Positions 1 to 60,964 of a stretch of 64,000 nucleotides of DNA are shown here, one piece after another. The notes beneath the pieces were generated by a model. The model did not search any database. It saw nothing but the letters and a program-made list of their open reading frames with translations, and had not been told where the DNA came from. The translations under genes were made by a program, and so were the position numbers. The DNA is taken from positions 84,487 through 148,486 of the forward strand of contig MFPS01000007.1 in assembly GCA_001782825.1 (NCBI GenBank). The letters are read 5' to 3'. The DNA is from Candidatus Magasanikbacteria bacterium RIFCSPHIGHO2_01_FULL_33_34 (lineage in GTDB: Bacteria; Patescibacteriota; Patescibacteriia; Magasanikbacterales; UBA922). Within the stretch, counting starts at the first letter, position 1. Each line of letters starts with the position of its first letter.

Positions 1-2144
1 CTTTTATCTGCGCCCGGTCTATCACTGACATAATCAACATAATCTTCTAATCTTACATTTAAAGATCTTGCTAATAAATTTATTATATCCATATTTGTTT
101 TTTCCTCTCCATGAACATTATAAATTTCATGATCTGGAGATTTGTGAGCAATGATATCAATTGCACTACAAAAATCATTTACATGAACCCAACTACGAAT
201 CTGTTGACCTGTGCCATGTATTGGAATTTTACTTCCTTCAATAATATTAGAAATTGCAAGTGGAATTAACTTTTCTGGATATTGGTACTGTCCATAATTA
301 TTTGAACCACGCACAATTACTGCTGGTACTTTGTGTGTACGAATAAATGATTGCACGATTAAATCAGCCGCCGCCTTAGACGAAGAATAAGGATTTGAAG
401 GTCTCAATGGAGAATCTTCATAAGAATAGCCCTCATCAATATCCCCATAAATTTCATCAGTAGAAATATGTACAAAACGTGGTACATTATATTTTCTGAC
501 GGCTTCAATCAAACTTCTTACACCACCGATATTGGTATAAATAAAATCATTCATATCAATAATTGATCTATCAACATGAGTTTCTGCCGCAAAATTTATC
601 ACCATATCAAAATTATGGCGAGCAAAAATAATATCTAAAAATCTAGTATCGCATATATCTCCATACAAAAAATTGTATCTTTTTTGATTTGAATCTAAAC
701 TACATTCTTTCTTTTCAATATCAAGAAGATTGTCTTGATTGCCTGCATAAGTTAATAAATCAATATTATAAATACGATATTCAGGATATTTTTCGTACAA
801 ATGTCTTACAAAATTTGACCCAATAAATCCATAACCACCAGTAACTAAAATATTTTTATTTTCTCGCTTTGGCAAATTGACCATGCTTGAAGTCAAAAAC
901 CCAGCATTCCTATTTTGTAATTTTTTTTTAAAAAATTCATTAAATGTATCCTTCAAATATTGAATCTGTTCTGTTTGTAAACCGTGGTGACAACCAACTA
1001 CAAAGCCATTTCGCATTACTTTATCAGTAATCGGGAAATTATTATCAGCCACTTCTTTACTTTCCAAATTACTAAAAGCTGGTTGTTTTAATACATTGCC
1101 AGTAAAAATAGGTCTTGTTTGAATATTTTTTTCTTCCAAAAATTTAGTTATCTCATTTCTTGTAAAACCAACATTATCTTTAAGTGTCAAAGGAAAACAT
1201 AACCAATTTGTCTCTACTCGTATATCTTGTTTTGGTAAAATAAACAAGTCTTCATAATCTCTAAAAAAATTCATCAGTTCAGCAAAATTCTGTTTTCTCT
1301 TCTCCGAAAAAGAATCTAGACGTCTCAATTGAACAAGACCAAAAGCACCATTTAACTCTCCAGATTGAAAATTATACCCAACTTCACTAAAAATAAATTT
1401 TGCATCATAAGTTTCTCCATCTAATTTACCAGCAAATCTCTTTTCAATATCCTCTGATTTTTCATAAACCCCAAACAATGTTGACTCACGCCCCCAATTA
1501 CTCTTAACAAGAGCGCGTTTTGCTAATTCTTTGTCATGAAAACAAACCATACCACCTGATCCAGCAGCGGTTACCACATGTGAAGCATAGAAACTTGTAG
1601 TTGAAATATCTGAATAAAAACCACTTGGATTACCATCAAATTTTGCCCCGAGTGTATCACAAGAATCTTCTACTAAAAATAAACTATATTTATCTGCCAA
1701 CTCTCTCAATTTTTTCATATCTGGCACATTGCCAAGCAATGATGGTATCATCAAAACTTTTGTATTCTGAGTGATCAATGCTTCTATCTTATCTACATCT
1801 ATCAAATAAGTACCTGGCACAACATCTACAAAAACTGGCTTCAAACCCTTTTGTAAAATTGGAGACAATGTGGTCCCAAAAGTAAGTGCAGGTGTAATAA
1901 CTTCAGAGCCAACCGGTAAATCCAACACATCCAAAGCAATTAGATTTGCCGAAGAACCAGAATTTACCATAATGCCATATTCTTTTCCAAAAATACCTGC
2001 AATTTTTTTCTCAAATTCTTTTACTTGTGGTCCAGCCACAATTTTTTTAGGATTTCTCAAAACATTCAAAACAGCCTCAATTTCTTCTGGTCCATATATA
2101 GCGGCTGCATAAGGCACCTCCATACTATCTCTTTTGTTCTCCAT
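1..2144 (-). CDS. Apparent fusion protein: N-terminal DegT/DnrJ/EryC1-family PLP/PMP enzyme (sugar 3-dehydratase-like, His in place of the Schiff-base Lys) joined to a C-terminal NDP-hexose 4,6-dehydratase (RfbB-like SDR). Truncated at the window edge.
   Basis: Hand translation of the minus strand from ATG at 2142-2144 (alternative start 2121-2123) is continuous to position 1 with no stop. The N-terminal ~410 aa has DegT-like motifs (GSSANLIALD; SFYASHVVTAAGSGGMV, where His occupies the usual Lys position). From about nt 900 downward it reads ILVTGGYGFIGSNFVRHL...YGDICD...SPLRPSNPYSSSKAAAD...PLAISNIIEG, typical of dTDP-glucose 4,6-dehydratase. The domain junction coincides with a T9 homopolymer (about 921-929). 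Confidence 0.55.
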   Translation of the reverse strand, partial: MENKRDSMEVPYAAAIYGPEEIEAVLNVLRNPKKIVAGPQVKEFEKKIAGIFGKEYGIMVNSGSSANLIALDVLDLPVGSEVITPALTFGTTLSPILQKGLKPVFVDVVPGTYLIDVDKIEALITQNTKVLMIPSLLGNVPDMKKLRELADKYSLFLVEDSCDTLGAKFDGNPSGFYSDISTTSFYASHVVTAAGSGGMVCFHDKELAKRALVKSNWGRESTLFGVYEKSEDIEKRFAGKLDGETYDAKFIFSEVGYNFQSGELNGAFGLVQLRRLDSFSEKRKQNFAELMNFFRDYEDLFILPKQDIRVETNWLCFPLTLKDNVGFTRNEITKFLEEKNIQTRPIFTGNVLKQPAFSNLESKEVADNNFPITDKVMRNGFVVGCHHGLQTEQIQYLKDTFNEFFKKKLQNRNAGFLTSSMVNLPKRENKNILVTGGYGFIGSNFVRHLYEKYPEYRIYNIDLLTYAGNQDNLLDIEKKECSLDSNQKRYNFLYGDICDTRFLDIIFARHNFDMVINFAAETHVDRSIIDMNDFIYTNIGGVRSLIEAVRKYNVPRFVHISTDEIYGDIDEGYSYEDSPLRPSNPYSSSKAAADLIVQSFIRTHKVPAVIVRGSNNYGQYQYPEKLIPLAISNIIEGSKIPIHGTGQQIRSWVHVNDFCSAIDIIAHKSPDHEIYNVHGEEKTNMDIINLLARSLNVRLEDYVDYVSDRPGADK

Positions 2145-2150
2145 ATGAAT

Positions 2151-3086
2151 CTATTTTTTTAAATAATTAATTACCTCCTTCAAACCAGCCTCTAAACTAT
2201 ACTTAGGCTTCCAATTGAAGTTCTTAAAGGTATTTTCCATATCAGCTTGCCACAATTTACTATCATAGTCAAGTAATGGTCTTTCTCCCCAATTTATATT
2301 ACTCTTTGACCCCGTAAGATTCATAACGATTTTAACCAATTCACCAAGCTGAACCGCTTTACCACTACCAGCATTAAAAATGCCCCCTTTATTATTTTTA
2401 GCAGAATCAATAGCGCTCATATACAAATCAACCAAGTCACCAACATAAATAAAGTCGCGCGAAACATCTTTATTGGTTATTTCAATATCTCTTCCATCTA
2501 AAGCTCTTTTAACAACCTCATAAACTAATCTACCTTTTTGTATTTTTGGACCATAAGGAGTAAATAATCTAAAAGTAATTATAGGTTTATTACTTGTTTT
2601 AGCTACAGCTTGACCATATAAGGTGGCACTTAATTTTGAAATACTATACAACTCTGTTGGTTCACACAAATCTGATTCTTTTACTGGATATTGCTTTGGT
2701 CCATACTCCATAAAACTACCCGTATTAACAAAAAAATTATAATCAATATCCTTAAGACTATCTACTAAATTTTTAAACCCTAAGATATTTGTATTCAACA
2801 CATCCTCATCTCCGGCTGTTACACCGCTGGCTATATTTGAAGCCGCCAAATGAAAAACACCATAAGGTTTTAACTTGTTAACAAAACTTTCCAAACTATT
2901 TTTATCAAGCAAGCTAACATAATGCAAATTTACTTTATCCAAAATATGTTCTATACGCCAAGTATCCGTAGTCTCTTTAATTAAAATATTGACATCGTAA
3001 CCTTCACTTACGAGTCTTTCTACCAAATGCGAGCCAATAAACCCAGCCCCACCTGTTACTAATATTTTTTTGTTTGAATTGCTCAT
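2151..3086 (-). CDS. NAD-dependent nucleotide-sugar epimerase/dehydratase (extended SDR)
   Basis: N-terminal Rossmann motif ILVTGGAGFIGSHLVERL; catalytic YxxxK (YSISKLSATLYG); 311 aa. Confidence 0.7.
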   Translation of the reverse strand: MSNSNKKILVTGGAGFIGSHLVERLVSEGYDVNILIKETTDTWRIEHILDKVNLHYVSLLDKNSLESFVNKLKPYGVFHLAASNIASGVTAGDEDVLNTNILGFKNLVDSLKDIDYNFFVNTGSFMEYGPKQYPVKESDLCEPTELYSISKLSATLYGQAVAKTSNKPIITFRLFTPYGPKIQKGRLVYEVVKRALDGRDIEITNKDVSRDFIYVGDLVDLYMSAIDSAKNNKGGIFNAGSGKAVQLGELVKIVMNLTGSKSNINWGERPLLDYDSKLWQADMENTFKNFNWKPKYSLEAGLKEVINYLKK

Positions 3087-3829
3087 TTTATATCAAAATT
3101 TTCGTATTTTTTAATTCCTAACTTTTGAAAAGTAAACTTTGCTAATACCCCCAACGTCATCATTCCATATTCCAAACTTTTATAAAAACTTGGAGATTTT
3201 GATTCTTCTGTATATCTTGTAGGAATAGGGATTTCATATACTCTAAATTTTCCTAATGAAATTTCTGCAAACATCTCTGTATCAAACACATAATTATTTG
3301 AATTTTTTTCAAATGGAATTCTTGTCAGCAAGTTTCTACCATAAGCTCTATAACCTGTGTGATATTCTGTTAATCCTAGACGAAAAAAAGAATCTTCTAA
3401 AATTGTCAACGCTCTATTAGCCACAAATCTCCATAATGGCATTCCACCTTTTCTAGCATCGCCCTTGTTATGCATCCGGGAACCAAAGCACACATCGGCT
3501 TCACCCAAAGCTATTTTTTTAACCATTTCAGGAACCAAACTAGGGTCATATTGAAAATCAGAGTGAACCATTACAGCCACATCTGCGCCCATATTAAGCG
3601 CTTCTCTATAACCGGTTTTTTGAGCACCACCATACCCTTTATTCTTTTCATGAACAACCAAATGCACACCCAATCTTTTGGCAATTTCGCTAGTTTTATC
3701 CCTACTACCATCATCAACTACTATAATTTCGTCTACAGAACCTTCTGGTATAGCTTTAATAGATTTCTCTAATGTTTTCTCTGTATTATATGCAGGTATT
3801 ACTACTATTATTTTTTTATCATTGATCAT
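3083..3829 (-). CDS. Family 2 glycosyltransferase (GT-A fold)
   Basis: IIVVIPAYNTEKTLEKSI...VVDDGSRDKT...NKGYGGA...HSDFQYDP. 248 aa; 4-nt overlap with the upstream gene. Confidence 0.7.
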   Translation of the reverse strand: MINDKKIIVVIPAYNTEKTLEKSIKAIPEGSVDEIIVVDDGSRDKTSEIAKRLGVHLVVHEKNKGYGGAQKTGYREALNMGADVAVMVHSDFQYDPSLVPEMVKKIALGEADVCFGSRMHNKGDARKGGMPLWRFVANRALTILEDSFFRLGLTEYHTGYRAYGRNLLTRIPFEKNSNNYVFDTEMFAEISLGKFRVYEIPIPTRYTEESKSPSFYKSLEYGMMTLGVLAKFTFQKLGIKKYENFDIK

Positions 3830-4280: not shown

Positions 4281-5363
4281 TTATTTTTCTACCAAATCCA
4301 AATTCATTGGAGTTCCACGTTCTATATCTTGCGTAGATTTTTTCCCTAAAATTTCATCCAAATATTTTGGTGCCACTCCAATACCCGGTCTAATTGACCT
4401 AAGATTTTTTTCTGTAAATTCTTCGCCCTTTTTCATATCTTCAACCACAAATAAAGATTGACGTAAGTGTTTAGCATTATAAGCCTCCTTTTCATTAGCT
4501 GGCCCATAATGAATTTTGCCTAAAACTTTTTCTGCTTCACGTATACCTTCTATCATAACTTTTAACTCACTCGGAGTAACAGAAAAATCAGAATCTGGAG
4601 TTTTTTCTTTTCCTTCAGGCATTACATGTTTTTCTATAACTTTGGCACCAGCCAAAACTGCCATAGCGGCTGTTCTTGTGCCACCAATATTTTCTGAAAA
4701 TCCAGGTATGACATCAAACTTACTTTTTATGTCAGCAATATTTTTCAAATTTAAGGTAGTAAAATCTGGTTCATGTGTATACGTAGTACTACAGTGCAAA
4801 ATTACCAAATCTTTTATACCATTTTCTTTCAAAGTATCTATGCCAAGTTTTGCCTCTTCTTCGGTTGCAAAACCGATTGACATTATAACTGGTTTACCAG
4901 TCTTAGCCACACGACGCAAAAGTGGAATATGTGACACCTCATAGGAAGCAATTTTGTACATTCCAACATTCATATTTTCCATATAGTCAACTGCCGTAAT
5001 ATCATATACAGTTGAAAAGAAAAACAAACCAACTTTTTCTGCCTCTTCTTTTAGTTGTGGTAGCCATTCCCATGGTGTATAAGCAGTTTTATACAAATCA
5101 TAAAGTTTAGCCCCTTTCCATGGGTTCTCATCCCCCTCCATTACAAAACCATTTTTATCACAATCAATAGTCAAAGTATCAGGAGTATAAGTTTGAAATT
5201 TAACCGCATCAGCACCTGCACCAGCTGCTGCGTGTACTATTTCAATCGCTTTTTCCAAATTTTGATTATGGTTTGCTGAAACTTCAGCAATTACAAAAGT
5301 TGGTGCGTCCCCACCAATCTCTCTTTCTCCTCTTGGTGTTTGTAATTTAAAAGATTTTGACAT
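4281..5363 (-). CDS. NeuB-family nonulosonic acid synthase (pseudaminic / legionaminic / N-acetylneuraminic acid synthase) with C-terminal SAF domain
   Basis: GGDAPTFVIAEVSANHNQNLEKAIEIVHAAAGAGADAVKFQTY is diagnostic of NeuB/PseI/LegI TIM-barrel synthases. 360 aa with a C-terminal antifreeze-like extension. Confidence 0.8.
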   Translation of the reverse strand: MSKSFKLQTPRGEREIGGDAPTFVIAEVSANHNQNLEKAIEIVHAAAGAGADAVKFQTYTPDTLTIDCDKNGFVMEGDENPWKGAKLYDLYKTAYTPWEWLPQLKEEAEKVGLFFFSTVYDITAVDYMENMNVGMYKIASYEVSHIPLLRRVAKTGKPVIMSIGFATEEEAKLGIDTLKENGIKDLVILHCSTTYTHEPDFTTLNLKNIADIKSKFDVIPGFSENIGGTRTAAMAVLAGAKVIEKHVMPEGKEKTPDSDFSVTPSELKVMIEGIREAEKVLGKIHYGPANEKEAYNAKHLRQSLFVVEDMKKGEEFTEKNLRSIRPGIGVAPKYLDEILGKKSTQDIERGTPMNLDLVEK

Positions 5364-5381
5364 ATATTTTTTATTAAAAAA

Positions 5382-6611
5382 CTAAGCAGGTTCCACATCT
5401 ATATTATTTTTCTTTAACCATTCTCTGTGTTCTATTCTCTTCTTTTCCAAAGTATCCTGATCATCCCATATATTTTCCTTTATCCATTGATTATTTTCAT
5501 CCTTCCACCAAATCTTTGGATCATAAAAATTCTCGTCACAATATTTATCAAATTCTTCCTCAGAAACTCCTGCATAATCAAACCAAAATTTAAAATCTTT
5601 GGAACGCACATGGTCATATTTTTTTATCATTTCAATTCCTTCTTCACGAGTCATATAACCCAGTCTAATATCCTTACAAACATGATCACTACATCTACCA
5701 TATCCAAACTTCACATATTTTAAGTAATCCTTAATACCTGTTTCATATTTATCATCTAAATTAGAAATAGTACGATATGTTCTTTCAAATGGCTCTGGTG
5801 AAGGTTCCCAACCAAGTTCTTTCATTATAAAATCAGTTTGCTTATACATATCCCAATGTACATAATTGCCCAAAAATATTCCTCTGATTCCTAAATCAGA
5901 GATCTCTTCCATAGTAGGATACTGATAAAAGTTAAAATCATTTTCTTTTAAACCTTCTCTCAATTTTGAACGCCCAATTTTTTCCAACCCCTCATCTGTT
6001 AAGTCTCTAAAATTAAAACCTCTCTGATGATGCTCATGGAAGTCCCTAGCACTCATTTCTACCAAATCATAAAGAGAATATTGACCTCCACGATCAAGTC
6101 GACCATGTTCACCCCACATTATAAGGGGTACATTGTATTTTACTGCCATCTTAACTGGAAAACTAAAAATACCAGAATGGCAATGCCAACTCATATCACC
6201 CATCAAACGAAAAGTTAAACGGTTTAATTTTTTCAAAACTTTTATACTGGGGTAACCAATGATATGATCAACATCAAAAGTATGACGCATTTTGTATAAA
6301 TTTTTCTCACCAATTGGGTGGTAATTGTTACCGTGATATGTCACTAACAATGGTTTAAGTTTTAAAACTTCAGTAGCATACCAAGTTTGATACCAACTAT
6401 CTTTTCCACCACTTACTGGTATTAAAATATCATAACCACCAGTTTTGGAACGATAAGGCTCTACCAAATCTTGTAACATCTTGGCCCTTTCATCCCAGTC
6501 TATTTTTGGTTTTTCAGCATTAACAATACAACCACTACAAACCCCATTTTCATCAAAAGATAATTTTACGGCAGAAGATGCTGGATAAATACATTTTGTA
6601 CACCATTTCAT
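5382..6611 (-). CDS. N-acetyl sugar amidotransferase (PseA/WbpG-like, PP-loop ATP pyrophosphatase family)
   Basis: Cys-rich N-terminus (CTKCIYP...CSGC) followed by the PP-loop ILIPVSGGKDS. 409 aa. Immediately followed by HisF- and HisH-like genes, the classical acetamidino-forming triad. Confidence 0.65.
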   Translation of the reverse strand: MKWCTKCIYPASSAVKLSFDENGVCSGCIVNAEKPKIDWDERAKMLQDLVEPYRSKTGGYDILIPVSGGKDSWYQTWYATEVLKLKPLLVTYHGNNYHPIGEKNLYKMRHTFDVDHIIGYPSIKVLKKLNRLTFRLMGDMSWHCHSGIFSFPVKMAVKYNVPLIMWGEHGRLDRGGQYSLYDLVEMSARDFHEHHQRGFNFRDLTDEGLEKIGRSKLREGLKENDFNFYQYPTMEEISDLGIRGIFLGNYVHWDMYKQTDFIMKELGWEPSPEPFERTYRTISNLDDKYETGIKDYLKYVKFGYGRCSDHVCKDIRLGYMTREEGIEMIKKYDHVRSKDFKFWFDYAGVSEEEFDKYCDENFYDPKIWWKDENNQWIKENIWDDQDTLEKKRIEHREWLKKNNIDVEPA

Positions 6612-6637
6612 ATATTTTGCTTAAAATAATATTTTAA

Positions 6638-7429
6638 TTACCTAACTTCAATCCCATTTTGTTTCATAAAATTTTTGGCATGCATAGTTGAATGTTCTGT
6701 AAAGTGAAACTTATTTCCAACCGACACAGCCGAAGCTCCACCCTCTTTTATTCCCTCTACCAAATGTTTCCAATCTCCGACACCACCTGAGGCAATTACT
6801 GGGATATCTACTGCACTTGCTACTGTTTTTACAAGTGCAATATCATAACCCCGCATAGAACCATCTTCATCTATAGAAGTCAAAAATATTTCACCTGCCC
6901 CCAATTCTTCAACTTTTTTAGCCCAACCAACTACATCCATACCTGTATCAATTTTACCAAAACCTTTCATAACTTTATGTGTCCCATCTGTTTGTCTTTT
7001 TGCATCTATGGAAATGACTATACACTGACTACCAAAAACTTTTGCGCCCTCTGTTATAATTTCTGGTGTTTCAATTGCAACTGTATTTATTGTTATCTTG
7101 TCAGCTCCCATTTTTATATATCGCCTAATATCTTCCACACTTCTAATACCACCACCAGCGCACAAAGGAACGAAAGACTTCTTTGACACATATTTTATCA
7201 ACTGGTCAAAATCAGTCAATGTATTATCATAATTTACATCTGGCCTAAAAAAATCATAATTTTTCTCTCTGTTTATATCCAACAAAATTATTTCATCAAT
7301 TGCCCAAGCATTGAAATGCTCTACTGCCATAATAGCATTTCCCACCACCAAAAATTCAGAAAAATGCTTGCTCTGCACAATTTGACCATCTTTTATTATA
7401 AGACAAGCTATTAATCTTTTTTTCAACAT
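6638..7429 (-). CDS. Imidazole glycerol phosphate synthase cyclase-subunit homologue (HisF-like, WbuZ-type) of the amidotransferase triad
   Basis: MLKKRLIACLIIKDGQIVQS...ILLDINRE...GGGIRS...SGGVG are (beta/alpha)8 HisF motifs. The track start at 7450 is probably an N-terminal extension; Met8 chosen. Confidence 0.7.
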   Translation of the reverse strand: MLKKRLIACLIIKDGQIVQSKHFSEFLVVGNAIMAVEHFNAWAIDEIILLDINREKNYDFFRPDVNYDNTLTDFDQLIKYVSKKSFVPLCAGGGIRSVEDIRRYIKMGADKITINTVAIETPEIITEGAKVFGSQCIVISIDAKRQTDGTHKVMKGFGKIDTGMDVVGWAKKVEELGAGEIFLTSIDEDGSMRGYDIALVKTVASAVDIPVIASGGVGDWKHLVEGIKEGGASAVSVGNKFHFTEHSTMHAKNFMKQNGIEVR

Positions 7430-7436
7430 ATTAACC

Positions 7437-8048
7437 TCAATATTTAACAAATTTTCTCATCATTTCAATGCCATCTTTTTGACTTTTTTCTGGATGAAAT
7501 TGTGTTGCCATTATATTGCCACGCTCCAAACTACACACAAACTTACCACCATAATCTGTAACTCCAGTAATATCCTCTTTATTTTCACAATCAAAATGAA
7601 AACTATGCACAAAATAACAAATCTTTGGACTCATATCATTACCATACAACACACATTCTCTTTGTGGTTCAACATCATTCCAACCAATATGTGGAATACG
7701 ATATTCATCGCCTTCTGGAGTCAATTTTTTTACTTCACCTTTTATAAAACCTAGCCCATTATGCTCGCCTATTTCATAACTTTTATCTGCCAAAAGTTGC
7801 ATACCCAAACAAATTCCTAAAAATGGTTTTTTAACTTCCATTACTTCATTGGACAAAACTTCAACCAAACCAAGCTTTTTTAAATTTTCCATTGCCTCGC
7901 CAAATGCACCCACACCTGGCAGAATTAATTTGTCGGCTAATTCAATTTCTTTAGTTTTATTTGTAATTATGTTTTTCTCGCCAATATAATCCAGAATATT
8001 TGCTACTGATTGCAAATTTCCCATTCCATAATCAATAATTGCTATCAT
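7437..8048 (-). CDS. Class I glutamine amidotransferase, HisH-like (WbuY-type)
   Basis: MIAIIDYGMGNLQSV...GICLGMQLL...QFHPEKS (catalytic Cys-His-Glu triad context). 203 aa. Confidence 0.75.
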   Translation of the reverse strand: MIAIIDYGMGNLQSVANILDYIGEKNIITNKTKEIELADKLILPGVGAFGEAMENLKKLGLVEVLSNEVMEVKKPFLGICLGMQLLADKSYEIGEHNGLGFIKGEVKKLTPEGDEYRIPHIGWNDVEPQRECVLYGNDMSPKICYFVHSFHFDCENKEDITGVTDYGGKFVCSLERGNIMATQFHPEKSQKDGIEMMRKFVKY

Positions 8049-9172
8049 ACTACAATTGCTTTTACTTTTTCTATTACTTTCTTTTGTTCATCTTCGGTCA
8101 AATCAGGATACAAAGGCAACGAAATTACACTATTATACCATTTTTCTGTTTGCTCTAAACCATCACTTGTATAACCTAAATTTTTATAAAAAGTATGCAT
8201 ATGTACTGGAATATGATGAACTTGAACACCAATTCCCTCCGCACGCAATTTATCAAAAATTGCTACTTTCTTTGACACCAGATTTTCTTTTAATCTGATT
8301 GTATACAAATGCCAAGCTGATTTATAAATTTCATCATCCTTAACTGGAGTAATTATGTTATCAAAATCTAAAAAAGCTTCATCATACTTCTCCACTATTT
8401 TTTTTCTTTTTTGTAAAAATAAATTAAGTTTTGATAATTGTCTTATACCAAGCGCGCAAGCAAAATCTGGCAAACGATAATTTAATCCCAACTCCACCAT
8501 ATCAAAATACCATGCGCCAAGATTTTTATCTAAATTTTCTTTTATAATACCATGAGTAATAAATCTTTTCATTTTTTTGTAATATTCCTCATTATCAGTC
8601 AAAATAGCCCCACCTTCACCAGTAGTAATATTTTTCACAGGATGAAAACTAAAAGTAGACAAATCACTTATTGAGCCTACTTTTCTACCATTGAAACTTG
8701 CCCCCAATGCTTGTGAAGCATCTTCTATAACTTTTAAATTATATCTATCAGCAATTTCTTTTATTTTTTCCAAATCAACTGGGCGTCCAGTATAATCAAT
8801 TGGTACAATCGCCTTTGTTTTATCTGTTATTTTTTCTTCTATTTTAGAAATATCCATATTACCTGTAGTAGGATCAATATCCACAAATACTGGTCTAGCC
8901 CCTTGCCACACACCTACATTACTAGTAGCCACAAAGGTTAATGATGTGGTTATAAATTCATCTCCTGATCCAATTCCAACCGCAACAAAAGCTGAATGTA
9001 AAGCAGCCGTTCCATTTGATACAACTACAGCATATTTAGCGCCACAATAATCTGCCAAATCTTTTTCAAATCTTGTAACCCTTTCACCTTGAGTTAAACA
9101 ATCTGAACCAAGTGCGTCTACAACTGCATCAATGTCTTCTTTATCAATTGACTGATGTCCGTATGGTATCAT
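8045..9172 (-). CDS. DegT/DnrJ/EryC1/StrS aminotransferase, PseC-like (UDP-4-keto-6-deoxy-hexosamine 4-aminotransferase)
   Basis: MIPYGHQSIDKEDIDAVVDALGSDCLTQGERV...SNGTAALH...FSFHPVKNITTGEGG. The Schiff-base Lys is present, so it is a true aminotransferase. Confidence 0.75.
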   Translation of the reverse strand: MIPYGHQSIDKEDIDAVVDALGSDCLTQGERVTRFEKDLADYCGAKYAVVVSNGTAALHSAFVAVGIGSGDEFITTSLTFVATSNVGVWQGARPVFVDIDPTTGNMDISKIEEKITDKTKAIVPIDYTGRPVDLEKIKEIADRYNLKVIEDASQALGASFNGRKVGSISDLSTFSFHPVKNITTGEGGAILTDNEEYYKKMKRFITHGIIKENLDKNLGAWYFDMVELGLNYRLPDFACALGIRQLSKLNLFLQKRKKIVEKYDEAFLDFDNIITPVKDDEIYKSAWHLYTIRLKENLVSKKVAIFDKLRAEGIGVQVHHIPVHMHTFYKNLGYTSDGLEQTEKWYNSVISLPLYPDLTEDEQKKVIEKVKAIVV

Positions 9173-9178
9173 ATATTT

Positions 9179-10180
9179 TTATTCAAGCATGTCCAAAAGT
9201 TTTTTTAAACCTTCTTCGTCCAACCATTTATCATTTTTATGACTAGCAAAGAAAAATCCTTCTGGAACTTCTTTACCCCTTATATAATTATCTGACTCAT
9301 CCCACCATTTATCATCTTGATAATCAGGAAAAATTATATAATGATTATCAAACTCACGTACATTACGTGCTTCTTCTGGAGTAATCAAAGATTCATGTAA
9401 TTTTTCTCCTGGACGAATACCAATATACTTTAATCTACAACCTGGGGCACAAACTTGTATTAAATCTTTAATACCCATACTAGGAATTTTTGGAATAAAA
9501 ATTTCTCCACCTCTCATATCATTCAAAGAATCCAAAACAAATTCAATACCCTGATCCAAAGTAATCCAAAAACGAGTCATTTTTTCGTCTGTTATAGTTA
9601 TTTCTCCACTTGCTTTTTGCTTTGCAATCACTCCAATTATACTGCCACGGCTACCAAACACATTACCATATCTCACAACACTCAACTTTGTACCACCAAG
9701 TCCAGAATAAAAATTACTATTTACTACCAATTTTTCAGCACAAAGTTTTGTGGCTCCATACAAATTGGCTGGATTAGCTGCCTTGTCAGTTGATATAAGT
9801 AAAACTTTTTTAACACCTTTTTCAATCGCCGCATTTACTACATTCTCTGTGCCAAGTATATTCGTCTTAATTGCTTCTGTAGGATTATATTCAAGAGCAG
9901 GAACTTGTTTCAAAGCTGCCGCATGCACAACATAATCAACCCCTTGAAATGCGCGCTTTAGACGATCTAAATCTCTAACATCGCCAATAAAAAAACGTAA
10001 CCTATCTCTGTGTTCTGCAAAAGTTATTTTCATCTCATGCTGTTTCAATTCATCACGACTAAACACTATAATTCTTTTAGCACCACTTTTCATTAATAAT
10101 GTTTTTACAAAAGCTTGACCAAAAGAACCAGTACCACCAGTAACCAAAATAGATGAATCTACCAAAAAATCTAATGACAT
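9179..10180 (-). CDS. UDP-GlcNAc 4,6-dehydratase (inverting), PseB/FlaA1/CapD-like
   Basis: ILVTGGTGSFGQAFVKTLL...KRIIVFSRDELKQHEM is typical of PseB. The track start at 10240 overlaps a predicted promoter, so the internal Met (MSLDFLVDSS) was chosen. Confidence 0.7.
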   Translation of the reverse strand: MSLDFLVDSSILVTGGTGSFGQAFVKTLLMKSGAKRIIVFSRDELKQHEMKITFAEHRDRLRFFIGDVRDLDRLKRAFQGVDYVVHAAALKQVPALEYNPTEAIKTNILGTENVVNAAIEKGVKKVLLISTDKAANPANLYGATKLCAEKLVVNSNFYSGLGGTKLSVVRYGNVFGSRGSIIGVIAKQKASGEITITDEKMTRFWITLDQGIEFVLDSLNDMRGGEIFIPKIPSMGIKDLIQVCAPGCRLKYIGIRPGEKLHESLITPEEARNVREFDNHYIIFPDYQDDKWWDESDNYIRGKEVPEGFFFASHKNDKWLDEEGLKKLLDMLE

Positions 10181-10211
10181 ATTTATTTTACAAATTAATA
10201 TAACGCCTCTT

Positions 10212-10240
10212 ACTTTAGCAAAAAAATACAAAAATTGCAA
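10212..10240 (-). promoter_or_regulatory. Sigma-70-like promoter candidate for the PseB-like operon (TTGCAA-N17-TAAAGT)
   Basis: On the minus strand, -35 TTGCAA (10235-10240), a 17-nt spacer, and -10 TAAAGT (10212-10217), about 30 nt upstream of the chosen start codon. Confidence 0.3.
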
Positions 10241-10318
10241 GTTGTATTGTCTTGATTTTTAAAAAATAAAAAAATAGCTAATTTAAGCTAAAAATATAAT
10301 CAAAAAACAAAATAAAAA

Positions 10319-11464
10319 CTACTTAATTTGTAAAACCTTTTTATATATTTTTATATACTCACCTGCTATTTTATTCCATCTATGATTTTCTGCATACTTT
10401 TTACCAGCCTCCCCCATTTGTTTAGCTAAATCTTGATCTTTTAATATTTTTATAATAGCCTCAGCGGTAGAATCAATATCATTTTCTGGTACAAGAATGC
10501 CAGTCTTACCATCTAAAATTGCATCTGGTACACCTCCTGAACGACTACCAACAACCGGTTTGCCAGTAGCACCAGCCTCCAAATAAACTATACCAAACCC
10601 CTCAAAAGCGCCATCTGCATTCCTTGGAGTATGACAATAAACATCACACATATGAAAATATGCCGGCAACTCTTCATCACTTACCCGTCCAGCAAATAAT
10701 ATAATCTTCTCCAGTTTTAATTCTTTGACCAAATCTTTCAAACTTTTTTCATCAGTTCCAGAGCCAACCAATACATAAATTGCATTTGGCACAACTTTGA
10801 TCACTTTTTGCATAGCTCTAATTACAATATCAAAACCTTTTCTACTTTTAAGCGCACCCACACCTATTACAATTTTTTTATCTACTCCATATTTTTCTCT
10901 CAATTCTTTTATATCAACTTCTTTTTCAAATCTAGCGTAATTAACACCGGCATGAACTACGTCTATCTTATTTTCACTTATATTATATCTTTGCTTAGCG
11001 ACATTCATTGTAAAATTACTAATTGCGTTTACATTGACAGCCTGCTTATAAGTTTTACTAAACAAAAAATTATCCGGAAAACTTTTAAAAGGTTTATAAA
11101 ATGTACCACACAAAGTAATAATGTATGGAATTTTTTTATGAGAATTTATCATAGCCGAAAAAGCATATGGAAAATCAAGCGCATGAATCAAATCTGTTTT
11201 TCCAACCAATGCTTTGTTATTGACATAATTCCATAATCTTTTTGGATTTCTAAAAGACCATGCAAACTCAGGTAAAGTAAAATGGACTTTATCTACAAAA
11301 CTGAAATTGTCTGTATATCCTTTATTTTTCTCAGATTTAGGTAAATACAAATCAAACTCTAATTCATCACGATAAAAATTAAAATATGAAGTACAAAGTT
11401 CTGAAGCAACTGCGCCCCATCCATTTTTTTTATCAGCTGACGAACTAAAAAAAGCAATCTTCAT
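10319..11464 (-). CDS. GT4 (GT-B fold) glycosyltransferase
   Basis: C-terminal EGFGIVYLEAGATGKPVVGSRSGGVPD is the characteristic GT4 nucleotide-sugar binding motif. 381 aa. Confidence 0.7.
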   Translation of the reverse strand: MKIAFFSSSADKKNGWGAVASELCTSYFNFYRDELEFDLYLPKSEKNKGYTDNFSFVDKVHFTLPEFAWSFRNPKRLWNYVNNKALVGKTDLIHALDFPYAFSAMINSHKKIPYIITLCGTFYKPFKSFPDNFLFSKTYKQAVNVNAISNFTMNVAKQRYNISENKIDVVHAGVNYARFEKEVDIKELREKYGVDKKIVIGVGALKSRKGFDIVIRAMQKVIKVVPNAIYVLVGSGTDEKSLKDLVKELKLEKIILFAGRVSDEELPAYFHMCDVYCHTPRNADGAFEGFGIVYLEAGATGKPVVGSRSGGVPDAILDGKTGILVPENDIDSTAEAIIKILKDQDLAKQMGEAGKKYAENHRWNKIAGEYIKIYKKVLQIK

Positions 11465-14482: not shown

Positions 14483-15967
14483 ATGAAAGGATGTATTGTA
14501 TTACAAGGAGACTATGCCAAACTTGGACACTCAATAGCGGTAGCCCTTAAAAATCACGGGTTTACTGATTTTTGTGGATATATATTTACACCACACGCAA
14601 AACAATTAATAGAATCCCAAAATGACATCCAATATACCCAATTGCTAGTTGATCATGAATTACACGAAGGCTACGAAAAAATTGAAATAGATTATGATTT
14701 TATAAAAGAATTTGAAAAAGAATATGGTAATCCAAACTTATGGCCTTTTTTCTATGGAGATAGACAACTACTCCTATCTACTCCACCACTAGACGAGACG
14801 ACCATGGAAATAAACGCAAAATACAACTACGAAGATCTTTTGCGAATTTTTCTATCACGCGTCAAAAAAATTGAAAAAATGATTAACGAAGAAAAACCTG
14901 ATTTCATATTTTTCTTCACAGTTGGCACAATAGCGCATAAAATACTTTTTCATATTGCTAAAAAAAAAGGTATAAAAACTTTTGTAATACACGAAGGTCG
15001 CATTGGTAGCAAAGTCACAGTGTCCGAAAACTACAGTACCATAACTGAAGTTGAAGAATTATTTAAAAACCCAGAGAATATCAAATCAGAAAATATTGAA
15101 CAAGCAAAAAAAATAATAAAAAAATTCAGAGAAACTGGCTCACTACAATTAGAATTTTATACCGAAACAGAAAATAAATTTATAAGAAAAAAACTAAACC
15201 CATTTAAAAAAATACACAATAGTTTAAATTGGCTATTCAAACTTACCAAAAATTATTTCAAAAATAAAAAATTATTTTTGTATGGTGTAACATCTTTAAA
15301 CCCACTTAGATTTGCTTATTATCAACTAAGAAAAAAAGTAAGAAAACTGATTGGCTTTAATAAATTTTATTCTGAACCAAAAAATGAAAGATATGCTTTT
15401 TATCCACTACACATGGAACCAGAACAGGCTATTTTAGATTATGCTCCATACTATATAAACCAAACCGCCTTAATAGAACAAATCGCCAGATCATTGCCAA
15501 TTGATATGAAACTATATATAAAAGACCACCCAACTATGGCTTTCAAAAGAACTAGATCTTTTTACAAAAAACTTCTAAATATTCCAAATGTAAAAATAAT
15601 TAACCACAAAACCAGATCATTTGAAATAATTAAAAACTCTACTATTATAATTACTACTACCAGCACAGTTGGCTGGGAAGCGCTATTTTTGAAAAAACCA
15701 GTTATAACTTTTGGTAATGTTTACTATAATATTTTTCCAACTGTCAAAAAATGCAATGAAATAGAAAAATTGTATGAAATGATTAATGAACAAATAGCCA
15801 ATACTAATTTTGATGATGAGCTATTTAGCAAATTAGTCGCATCAGTTTTGCAAGACTCAGTAGATATGCGTCTAAACAGTCTATGGTATGAAGATTTTGA
15901 AAAAATAAAAAGCGACAAAGGCATTAAAGCTTTTGCAGAACTAATAGCAAATAAGGTTAAAAAATAA
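14483..15967 (+). CDS. Capsule-polysaccharide-biosynthesis (KpsC/KpsS/LpsZ-like, Capsule_synth) family protein
   Basis: 494 aa; C-terminal YIKDHP...STVGWEALFLKKPVITFG resembles the Capsule_synth fold of beta-Kdo transferases. Confidence 0.4.
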   Translation: MKGCIVLQGDYAKLGHSIAVALKNHGFTDFCGYIFTPHAKQLIESQNDIQYTQLLVDHELHEGYEKIEIDYDFIKEFEKEYGNPNLWPFFYGDRQLLLSTPPLDETTMEINAKYNYEDLLRIFLSRVKKIEKMINEEKPDFIFFFTVGTIAHKILFHIAKKKGIKTFVIHEGRIGSKVTVSENYSTITEVEELFKNPENIKSENIEQAKKIIKKFRETGSLQLEFYTETENKFIRKKLNPFKKIHNSLNWLFKLTKNYFKNKKLFLYGVTSLNPLRFAYYQLRKKVRKLIGFNKFYSEPKNERYAFYPLHMEPEQAILDYAPYYINQTALIEQIARSLPIDMKLYIKDHPTMAFKRTRSFYKKLLNIPNVKIINHKTRSFEIIKNSTIIITTTSTVGWEALFLKKPVITFGNVYYNIFPTVKKCNEIEKLYEMINEQIANTNFDDELFSKLVASVLQDSVDMRLNSLWYEDFEKIKSDKGIKAFAELIANKVKK

Positions 15968-52670: not shown

Positions 52671-52715
52671 ACAAAAAAAAACAATCCCCTGGCTTGCGCC
52701 AGAGGAATTGTTTTT
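52671..52715. terminator. Intrinsic terminator downstream of the 1251-aa gene (hairpin flanked by A9 and T6)
   Basis: AAAAAAAAA-CAATCCCCTGGCTTGCGCCAGAGGAATTG-TTTTTT. Confidence 0.5.
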
Positions 52716-59953: not shown

Positions 59954-60943
59954 TCATGGGTAGACGCAAGTGTTTGTGCCCACGTCGCAGTATGGCGACG
60001 GTGGACACGAATCTCCACACGGCAAGGCCGTGTAAAGGGTGCAGTGCCAGTCTTCATAGCACTGCACGCAGGTGCCATCCAGGCACTTGCGTTTGTCCGA
60101 CGGACAGTCGGAGTGCCCACTGCACTCCGGTTCCGGCTTGTCGCAGGTGCACTCACCGGCGACGCAGGAGTAGCCGTCGTCGCAGACGACCAGTTCGTGC
60201 TGGCAACCTAGAGTTGCGTCGCACGAATCGGTCGTACAGCTGTCACCGTCGTCGCACCCACCCAATGGGGGGGCAACTTGGTCACACAAACATGTGTCCG
60301 GGTTTTGTGCCCAGACACCGTTGCACGCGTCCTCGTCATCACAGACGAGGGGCGCGCAGCTCGGCGGAGCGTCACACTCCGGAACACCGGCATCCGGTGT
60401 CCCAAGGGGACATGTCGGACACGTCGGTTCCGGAGTGCATCCACTGGAAGTCGAGCAAAACTCTCCTTCGTTGCAGATTGTGCTGTCGGGGACCTGGAAA
60501 CACCCAGTACCCTCGACACACACGCCGACGGTGCAGACGAACGGGTCGTTGCAAGCGGGCGGTTCGCCCGGACGACATTCGCCGTCCAGACAGCGCTCCG
60601 CGCCGTTGCAGAACAACCCGTCGTTGCAGTCCAGATCCATTTCACAGGTCTCCGGACAACCGACACACGTGGGCGGACCCACGCACTCGTTGCGACTCTC
60701 GTCGCAGGTCATGCCGTTTTGACACAGGTCACCGGTGTGGGCACATTCGCCCACTCCGATACAGTACTCCACGCCATTACAGAACAACCCGTCCTGCGGA
60801 CAATCGCAAGCGTTACCGCCTGCATCATCCGCCGAACCAGCGTCAAGGGTAGAATTGCCGTTTGGCAACTCCACCCCGAAGTGGTCACGGCCCTCACCGC
60901 AAGCGGCGAGAGCCAAGAAAGCAAGAATGAGGATTCTCATCAT
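59954..60943 (-). CDS. Cysteine-rich secreted lipoprotein (about 16% Cys) with repeated DGLFCNG.E.C / CDDGDSC-type modules
   Basis: Signal peptide plus lipobox (LALAAC-G); repeats DGLFCNGVEYC, DGLFCNGAERC, CDDEDACNG, CDDGDSCTTDSCD. 329 aa; high GC3. Confidence 0.5.
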   Translation of the reverse strand: MMRILILAFLALAACGEGRDHFGVELPNGNSTLDAGSADDAGGNACDCPQDGLFCNGVEYCIGVGECAHTGDLCQNGMTCDESRNECVGPPTCVGCPETCEMDLDCNDGLFCNGAERCLDGECRPGEPPACNDPFVCTVGVCVEGTGCFQVPDSTICNEGEFCSTSSGCTPEPTCPTCPLGTPDAGVPECDAPPSCAPLVCDDEDACNGVWAQNPDTCLCDQVAPPLGGCDDGDSCTTDSCDATLGCQHELVVCDDGYSCVAGECTCDKPEPECSGHSDCPSDKRKCLDGTCVQCYEDWHCTLYTALPCGDSCPPSPYCDVGTNTCVYP

Positions 60944-60964
60944 TTTCTTTTCTTTCTGCCACCC

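Follow-up and report, generated by a model that had tools for sequence, protein, structure and literature searches.

Three types of described enzymes are close to the protein analyzed here. E1 (RfbH/DdhC/AscC, PDB 3BCX), the CDP-6-deoxy-L-threo-D-glycero-4-hexulose 3-dehydrase, and ColD (PDB 2GMS/3B8X), the GDP-4-keto-6-deoxy-D-mannose 3-dehydratase, both carry a His in place of the Schiff-base Lys, but they complete the reaction differently. E1 and SpnQ require a [2Fe-2S] cluster bound by four Cys as well as a reductase, and SpnQ transaminates when the reductase is lacking (PMC8987622). ColD, in contrast, has neither cluster nor reductase, its reaction is completed by hydrolysis, and pyridoxamine 5′-phosphate (PMP) is regenerated from glutamate (PMC8987622). 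The third enzyme is RmlB/RfbB (PDB 1KEP, 6BI4), the 4,6-dehydratase acting on glucose activated with deoxythymidine diphosphate (dTDP). Fusions between deoxysugar enzymes have been described for RmlC/D of microalgae and viruses and for the trifunctional RHM of plants (PMC6556577, PMC8987622). Here we report on a gene that joins a His-type sugar 3-dehydratase and an RmlB in one polypeptide of 775 amino acids (aa). It is located at the beginning of a stretch of 64,000 nt of contig MFPS01000007.1 (in the following called the window), which stems from an uncultured groundwater bacterium, Candidatus Magasanikbacteria (Patescibacteria/Candidate Phyla Radiation, CPR).

Translation of the minus strand from position 2144 to position 1 yielded 714 codons without a stop, and the other two frames were full of stop codons. 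The full-length gene continues past window position 1 for another 61 codons plus the stop codon. The window is part of a JGI contig of 229,695 bp (C687J35174_10000033), on which the gene was called with 768 aa (P0001). The window product is identical to P0001 and to the 775-aa protein P0271, and the start at 2144 (MENKRDSMEVPY; MENKRDS) agrees in the alignment with N-terminal extensions of the orthologues. Hidden Markov models (HMMs) from NCBIfam and Pfam placed the DegT domain at aa 6-408 and the 4,6-dehydratase domain at aa 431-713 of the window copy, corresponding to about 431-775 in the full-length protein. This is in agreement with an earlier note on this DNA, which had read one single open reading frame (ORF) from a DegT-like domain of about 410 aa straight into a 4,6-dehydratase cut by the window edge. 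The coordinates of all features are compiled in Table 1.

The 775-aa gene with its N-terminal His-type 3-dehydratase, its short disordered linker and its C-terminal RmlB is real. In 12 of 12 other assemblies that were read (from NCBI, ENA, JGI and Logan) the gene did not differ at a single position over 2328 nt, and the cluster of P0001 at 90% identity includes the 775-aa form, which was seen on at least 24 JGI, ENA and Logan contigs. A search for the same architecture in related genomes, which the earlier note had proposed as a check, yielded eight further full-length fusions of 758-821 aa from other, independent samples, which have diverged to 64-76% identity. The identical assemblies and these eight orthologues thus support a true single polypeptide composed of a His-type 3-dehydratase and a nucleoside diphosphate (NDP)-hexose 4,6-dehydratase. 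When the nine fused proteins were aligned, both domains were intact and 379 columns were invariant. Among the orthologues the linker has a length of between about 20 and about 80 residues; it is rich in Pro and Ser in the long forms and could not be aligned between subgroups. The AlphaFold model, built from an alignment of 63 sequences, contains two confidently predicted domains, with a predicted template modeling score (pTM) of 0.55 and a predicted local distance difference test (pLDDT) value below 50 for the linker (residues 406-420 of P0001), as expected for two tethered modules. Foldseek did not retrieve any PDB chain that spans both domains. One ENA contig of 3613 bp splits the gene into products of 279 aa (P0272) and 485 aa (P0274), at a different site around window position 1310 (…RRLDSC-stop versus …RRLDSFSEKRK), which probably reflects a rare variant or a mistake in the assembly at this site.

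The N-terminal half belongs to the DegT fold family (PF01041, 274.5 bits), whereas its score with the RfbH model NF011936 (345-347 bits) stays under the cutoff of 423. The best solved relative is E1, with 258 bits and 37.9% identity, compared with 172 bits and 27-28% identity for ColD. The folds of both are closely similar to that of the N-terminal half, with template modeling (TM) scores of 0.84-0.85 for E1 and 0.85-0.87 for ColD in the Foldseek comparison. The motif SFYASHVVTAAGSGG is present, and its His (SFYASH) aligns with His220 of E1, which is a Lys in the H220K mutant structure 3BB8. The replacement of the Schiff-base Lys by His, as in E1 and ColD, had already been proposed in the earlier note, and this His turned out to be invariant in 63 homologues. 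Based on the His, the homology and the gene context, the N-terminal half is predicted to be a His-type sugar 3-dehydratase that would remove the oxygen from C3.

The C-terminal half is, by its sequence, an RmlB-type dTDP-glucose 4,6-dehydratase, with the predicted activity of converting dTDP-glucose to dTDP-4-keto-6-deoxyglucose. Full-length P0001 passed the RmlB equivalog TIGR01181 with 390.3 bits (cutoff 365.1), and the copy truncated by the window edge scored 330.8. The same protein reached only 94.1 bits with the model for CDP-glucose dehydratases (cutoff 278) and 52.9 bits with that for GMD (cutoff 415). All nine fused proteins share, without any change, the motifs of extended short-chain dehydrogenases/reductases (SDRs), i.e., GGYGFIGSN (GxxGxxG, the NAD site), STDEIYG (TDE) and PYSSSKAAAD (YxxxK), and Foldseek matched this half to RmlB structures with TM scores of 0.81-0.88 and 40-42% identity. 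Because the 4,6-dehydratase is of the RmlB type, the nucleotide is probably dTDP and not CDP or GDP. In contrast to the known RmlB/RfbB enzymes, to which it is otherwise similar, the fused copy is not a protein on its own, as a linker of 20-80 residues connects it with the enzyme that would consume its product.

Unfused relatives revealed how the fusion originated. Two of them, L002 and L003, were obtained from a scan of GTDB genomes, in which no species representative with the fusion was found and most hits were plain RmlB loci, one of the patterns used being an RmlB motif. In L002, a gene for a dehydratase of 406 aa is followed by a separate rmlB gene. In L003, the dehydratase gene (409 aa, 9050-10279) overlaps with the rmlB gene (354 aa, 10269-11333) by 11 nt, and the gene order GT2-SDR-DegT-RmlB-RmlC is the same as in the window. 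The L003 RmlB aligns from its own start without gaps and with 66% identity to the C-terminal 355 aa of the fusion, beginning exactly at the Met within the linker, and therefore the ATG encoding this Met is what remains of the former rmlB start codon. The fusion thus arose from an operon in which rmlB followed directly after, or overlapped with, the dehydratase gene; the old dehydratase stop codon was lost, the former spacer (LQNRNAGFLTSS) is now translated, and the start Met of rmlB was kept in the linker. In a neighbor-joining tree of the dehydratase domains the nine fused proteins grouped together with a bootstrap support of 8-11%, whereas the support was 99% for P0001 to P0006 and 49% for P0007 to P0009. 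These values would leave room for one fusion event as well as for several.

The homopolymer at the domain junction made two alternative explanations necessary to consider, both of which had been raised in the earlier note. T9 at 921-929 encodes KKK (aa 406-408) and directly follows the last residues that can be aligned with E1, so the junction indeed falls on the tract, and stand-alone homologues end exactly where the KKK is found (…FLEKYER-stop, …FLKKYR-stop). A sequencing or assembly frameshift at this site could have joined two separate genes, and addition or loss of one base leads to a stop codon within 5-10 codons. The GenBank records seem to point in the same direction: the 90% identity cluster mentioned above also includes a 355-aa “dTDP-glucose 4,6-dehydratase” from four metagenome-assembled genome (MAG) contigs of Candidatus Magasanikbacteria, and these records (OGH59528.1 and three others) annotate the RmlB half alone and leave the 1.27-kb DegT half blank. 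However, the DNA of these MAG contigs is 100% identical to the window including the A9 (two of the four, over 2380 nt), and the split gene in GenBank was rejected as an annotation artifact, caused by the choice of an internal Met as the start. The look-up of exact products might hide length variants, and therefore the products of A8 and A10 versions were also searched for, with both possible starts; none was present in a collection of 15 billion proteins. Furthermore, the eight diverged orthologues are fused without such a tract, the junction DNA of the three that were read (L082, L083 and L085) containing no homopolymer of at least 8. Separate genes, which the earlier note would have taken as a sign of an artifact, do occur in L002 and L003, but these are distant relatives only, and they represent the ancestral state. 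Because the assemblies including the A9 are identical, A8 and A10 products are lacking and orthologues without the tract are also fused, the fusion is real, has been kept over considerable divergence and does not depend on the tract; a frameshift artifact is therefore exceedingly improbable. The other explanation is that the A9 controls the fusion. Through phase variation of the DNA or slippage during transcription, the cell could then make either the fused protein or a 3-dehydratase on its own, and in the latter case ribosomes would reinitiate at the relic ATG to translate rmlB. A/T runs of around nine bases make RNA polymerase slip, and only three of the A/T runs in the window have nine bases (133 have at least seven, at a GC content of 32.5%). 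In addition, the A8 frame contains a TGA at 893-895, 8 nt ahead of the relic ATG at 882-884, so that separate products would be possible in principle. Nevertheless, several results argue against slippage control. The length of the tract was nine in all 13 assemblies that were read (assembled sequences, not reads), no variant products were found in the protein collection, and the tract is absent from the junction in all fused orthologues examined. The KKK is a plain AAA run at low GC content, and the orthologues are also rich in Lys at this position. A Shine-Dalgarno-like sequence was not seen before the relic ATG, and either outcome would give the same two activities, leaving little to regulate. 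Slippage control of the fusion is thus very unlikely. The A9 is simply a run of three AAA Lys codons in a genome of 32.5% GC, and there is a minor additional possibility that slippage on it releases a small amount of the dehydratase in unfused form. The other two 9-base A runs of the window are located at 14960-14968, inside an ORF on the plus strand (14483-15967), and at 52673-52681 in an intergenic region.

A further alternative concerns the reaction instead of the gene. The DegT domain could act like E1 or SpnQ with an external electron donor, or it could catalyze something other than a 3-dehydration, for example a transamination, and the product would then differ. Its greater similarity to E1 than to ColD is consistent with this view, as is the transamination by SpnQ in the absence of its reductase (see above). 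The cysteines binding the [2Fe-2S] cluster of E1, which we take to be Cys193, Cys251, Cys253 and Cys261 in the numbering after Agnihotri et al. 2004, fit the residue numbering of our E1 alignment. In the fusion, Ser, Leu and Ile stand at the positions of Cys251, Cys253 and Cys261, respectively, and the equivalent of Cys193 alone is kept (EDSCD), which is a point in favor of an E1-like enzyme, together with the frequent GCHHG motif of the family. However, three of the four cluster cysteines are lacking in 120 of the 120 best homologues, mostly from Patescibacteria, and the 20 residues that follow the WGR are free of Cys in each of them. No other set of four cysteines is conserved. An alternative iron-sulfur (Fe-S) site formed by the cysteines of NWLCF and GCHHG was considered and rejected, as most of the 120 homologues have NWLAF and some have GAHHG. 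A motif scan of the window, which is uninformative on the rest of the genome, did not detect any ferredoxin, FNR or E3-like motif, and genes for an E3-type reductase or a ferredoxin were also absent from the Pfam lists of four orthologous loci. The scan picked up a Cys-rich open frame on the minus strand at 59957-60964 (CLDGTCVQCYEDWHCTLYTALPCGDSCPPSPYCDVGTNTC), which is not ferredoxin-like. Moreover, the invariant residue is a His and not a Lys. The E1-like or transaminase alternative is thus unlikely, though it has a better chance than the two explanations that invoke the homopolymer. Because the E1 cysteines are missing and neither ferredoxin nor E3 was found in the window or at the four loci, we infer that the 3-dehydratase domain may run a ColD-like, reductase-free cycle on an E1-like scaffold.

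The comparison with the two model enzymes therefore gives a mixed picture. The fusion shares with E1 the His in place of the Lys, the best match in sequence and fold, and the same place in a gene set of the 3,6-dideoxyhexose type. Unlike in E1 systems, the three cysteines and a nearby E3 reductase gene are lacking, the RfbH cutoff is not reached, and the 4,6-dehydratase is of the dTDP type instead of the CDP type and is covalently joined. ColD, which is also of the His type and free of Fe-S cluster and reductase, is the proposed mechanistic analogue. However, it is the more distant relative, and it operates in a GDP-mannose pathway together with GMD and ColC, whereas RmlB, RmlC and a separate SDR are found here.

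The gene order SDR-fusion-RmlC was kept in all four fused lineages examined, and the SDR gene is also located directly before the dehydratase gene in the unfused L003. The gene after the fusion, at L001 12311-12877, passed the RmlC equivalog (214.1 bits, cutoff 155.75). For the 311-aa SDR, none of the NCBIfam models scored above its cutoff, and its PDB matches were epimerases and reductases. The conserved neighbors, i.e., GT2, SDR, fusion and RmlC, suggest a pathway to a dTDP-linked 3,6-dideoxy-L-hexose. To our knowledge, 3,6-dideoxyhexoses have been known only as CDP- or GDP-sugars. In the proposed pathway, the RmlB domain would convert dTDP-glucose to dTDP-4-keto-6-deoxyglucose, and the tethered dehydratase domain would strip off the 3-OH via a PMP Schiff base, with the His as the base, to yield dTDP-4-keto-3,6-dideoxyglucose. 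The cycle would most likely end as it does in ColD, with a hydrolysis step and with glutamate restoring the PMP, so that no reductase is needed. RmlC would then epimerize C5 and the SDR would reduce C4, resulting in dTDP-3,6-dideoxy-L-hexose, and the adjacent GT2 together with PMT_2-type transferases of the locus could transfer the sugar to a lipid carrier and on to the cell surface. The fusion would provide a 1:1 stoichiometry, and with the two domains close together, the 4-keto intermediate might be captured before it is lost to RmlC and the rhamnose branch; because RmlC also accepts the RmlB product, tethering could favor 3-deoxygenation.

Several points weigh against this proposal. No curated model defines the substrate of the DegT domain, which scored below the RfbH equivalog cutoff and is nearer to E1 than to ColD. 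The missing E1 cysteines are no proof of a ColD-like cycle, and another reductant might serve instead. The assignment of dTDP is derived only from the scores of the RmlB and RmlC models, and no model assigns a role to the SDR, which is a probable 4-ketoreductase. An RmlA-type motif was not found by a motif search in the window, which is uninformative on the rest of the genome. Channeling of the intermediate is a speculation. Nevertheless, a real fusion that arose from adjacent genes, together with the pathway outlined above, is the best overall explanation, and we regard it as quite likely. We are more reserved about the full version, in which the fusion forms the core of an undescribed ascarylose- or colitose-like dTDP-3,6-dideoxy-L-hexose pathway in CPR bacteria and a reductase-free, E1-related dehydratase outpaces RmlC by virtue of being tethered to RmlB; it is proposed tentatively, and we would give it somewhat less than even credence.

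The earlier note had called the architecture unusual, and this was borne out by a profile search of 1.84 billion representatives of 50% identity clusters, in which P0007, the representative of the group, was the only full-length match, so that the fusion makes up one single cluster. The other long matches had different architectures, namely dehydratase::SDR, SDR::dehydratase, RmlD::dehydratase, RmlC::RmlD::dehydratase, C-methyltransferase::dehydratase, C-methyltransferase::RmlB, GT2::RmlB, RmlB::RmlD and intein-bearing forms. Fused sugar-nucleotide enzymes, among them 3-dehydratases joined to other sugar enzymes, are thus common. Like the described RmlC/D and RHM fusions, the gene joins enzymes of one deoxysugar pathway, presumably from adjacent genes, but here the partners are a 3-dehydratase and a 4,6-dehydratase, and the enzyme of the second step is N-terminal, i.e., the order is inverted. 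A literature search did not yield any paper on this fusion or on a dTDP-3,6-dideoxyhexose. The pair in this order is thus confined to one small clade, and it is rare and undescribed, yet an ordinary kind of adjacent-gene fusion. Its importance lies in the link between a dTDP-glucose 4,6-dehydratase and a large uncharacterized, Fe-S-free branch of E1-like 3-dehydratases that is common in Patescibacteria, as this link points to the substrate of the branch. The fusion might be a compact two-step catalyst for 3,6-dideoxy sugar nucleotides that requires neither an iron-sulfur protein nor a reductase, and it gives a hint that CPR bacteria, the envelopes of which are almost unknown, carry an unusual sugar on their surface. 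A reductase-free dTDP-3,6-dideoxyhexose pathway would, if true, be of somewhat greater interest. The analysis also exposed an annotation error, as the GenBank records of the same DNA carry the RmlB half alone. The matches P0162, P0170, P0216, P0246 and P0211 comprise RmlC::RmlD::His-type 3-dehydratase proteins without the Fe-S motif as well as intein-interrupted DegT and RmlB homologues.

Table 1. Positions of the fusion gene, its parts and its neighbors (window numbering unless another contig is named)
Feature	Position	Strand	Basis
Fusion gene, first 714 of 775 codons	1..2144	-	Open frame; identity to P0271 and P0001
Predicted DegT-fold His-type NDP-4-keto-6-deoxyhexose 3-dehydratase domain, aa ~8-408	921..2123	-	HMM, E1 alignment, Foldseek
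Predicted catalytic His codon, aa 189 of the 775-aa protein (H182 in P0001)	1578..1580	-	E1 His220 alignment
A9 tract (T9 on the plus strand), last three codons of the DegT domain (AAA, Lys)	921..929	-	Sequence
Linker (LQNRNAGFLTSS MVNLPKRENK), translated former spacer and RmlB N-terminus	855..920	-	AlphaFold model (AF2), alignment
In-frame linker ATG, relic of the ancestral rmlB start	882..884	-	L003 RmlB alignment
dTDP-glucose 4,6-dehydratase (RmlB) domain, truncated at window position 1	1..854	-	TIGR01181, motifs, Foldseek
Extended SDR of 311 aa, upstream conserved partner, probable 4-ketoreductase	2151..3086	-	Conserved gene order
GT2 glycosyltransferase resembling polyprenyl-phosphate sugar synthases	3083..3829	-	Module conserved between the window, L083 and L003
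GenBank DNA without annotated DegT half	L087 4735-6000 (MFPW01000013.1) = window ~882-2144		Identical DNA

The fusion gene is situated in a large surface-glycan locus, as indicated by a nearby pseudaminic-acid-like gene set. This set is encoded on the minus strand at 4281-10240 and comprises PseI (394.6 bits, cutoff 340), a YhcH-family protein, the amidotransferase WbuX with its GATase and HisF-like partners, a Lys-type DegT aminotransferase and a PseB-like dehydratase. On the same contig, about 8 kb past window position 1, a gene for a product of 602 aa (L001 18261-20069) contains a NeuB domain (PF03102) and a CTP_transf_3 domain (PF02348). This gene, too, seems to have fused enzymes of successive steps in a sugar pathway, namely a nonulosonic acid synthase and a cytidylyltransferase, within the same glycan locus.

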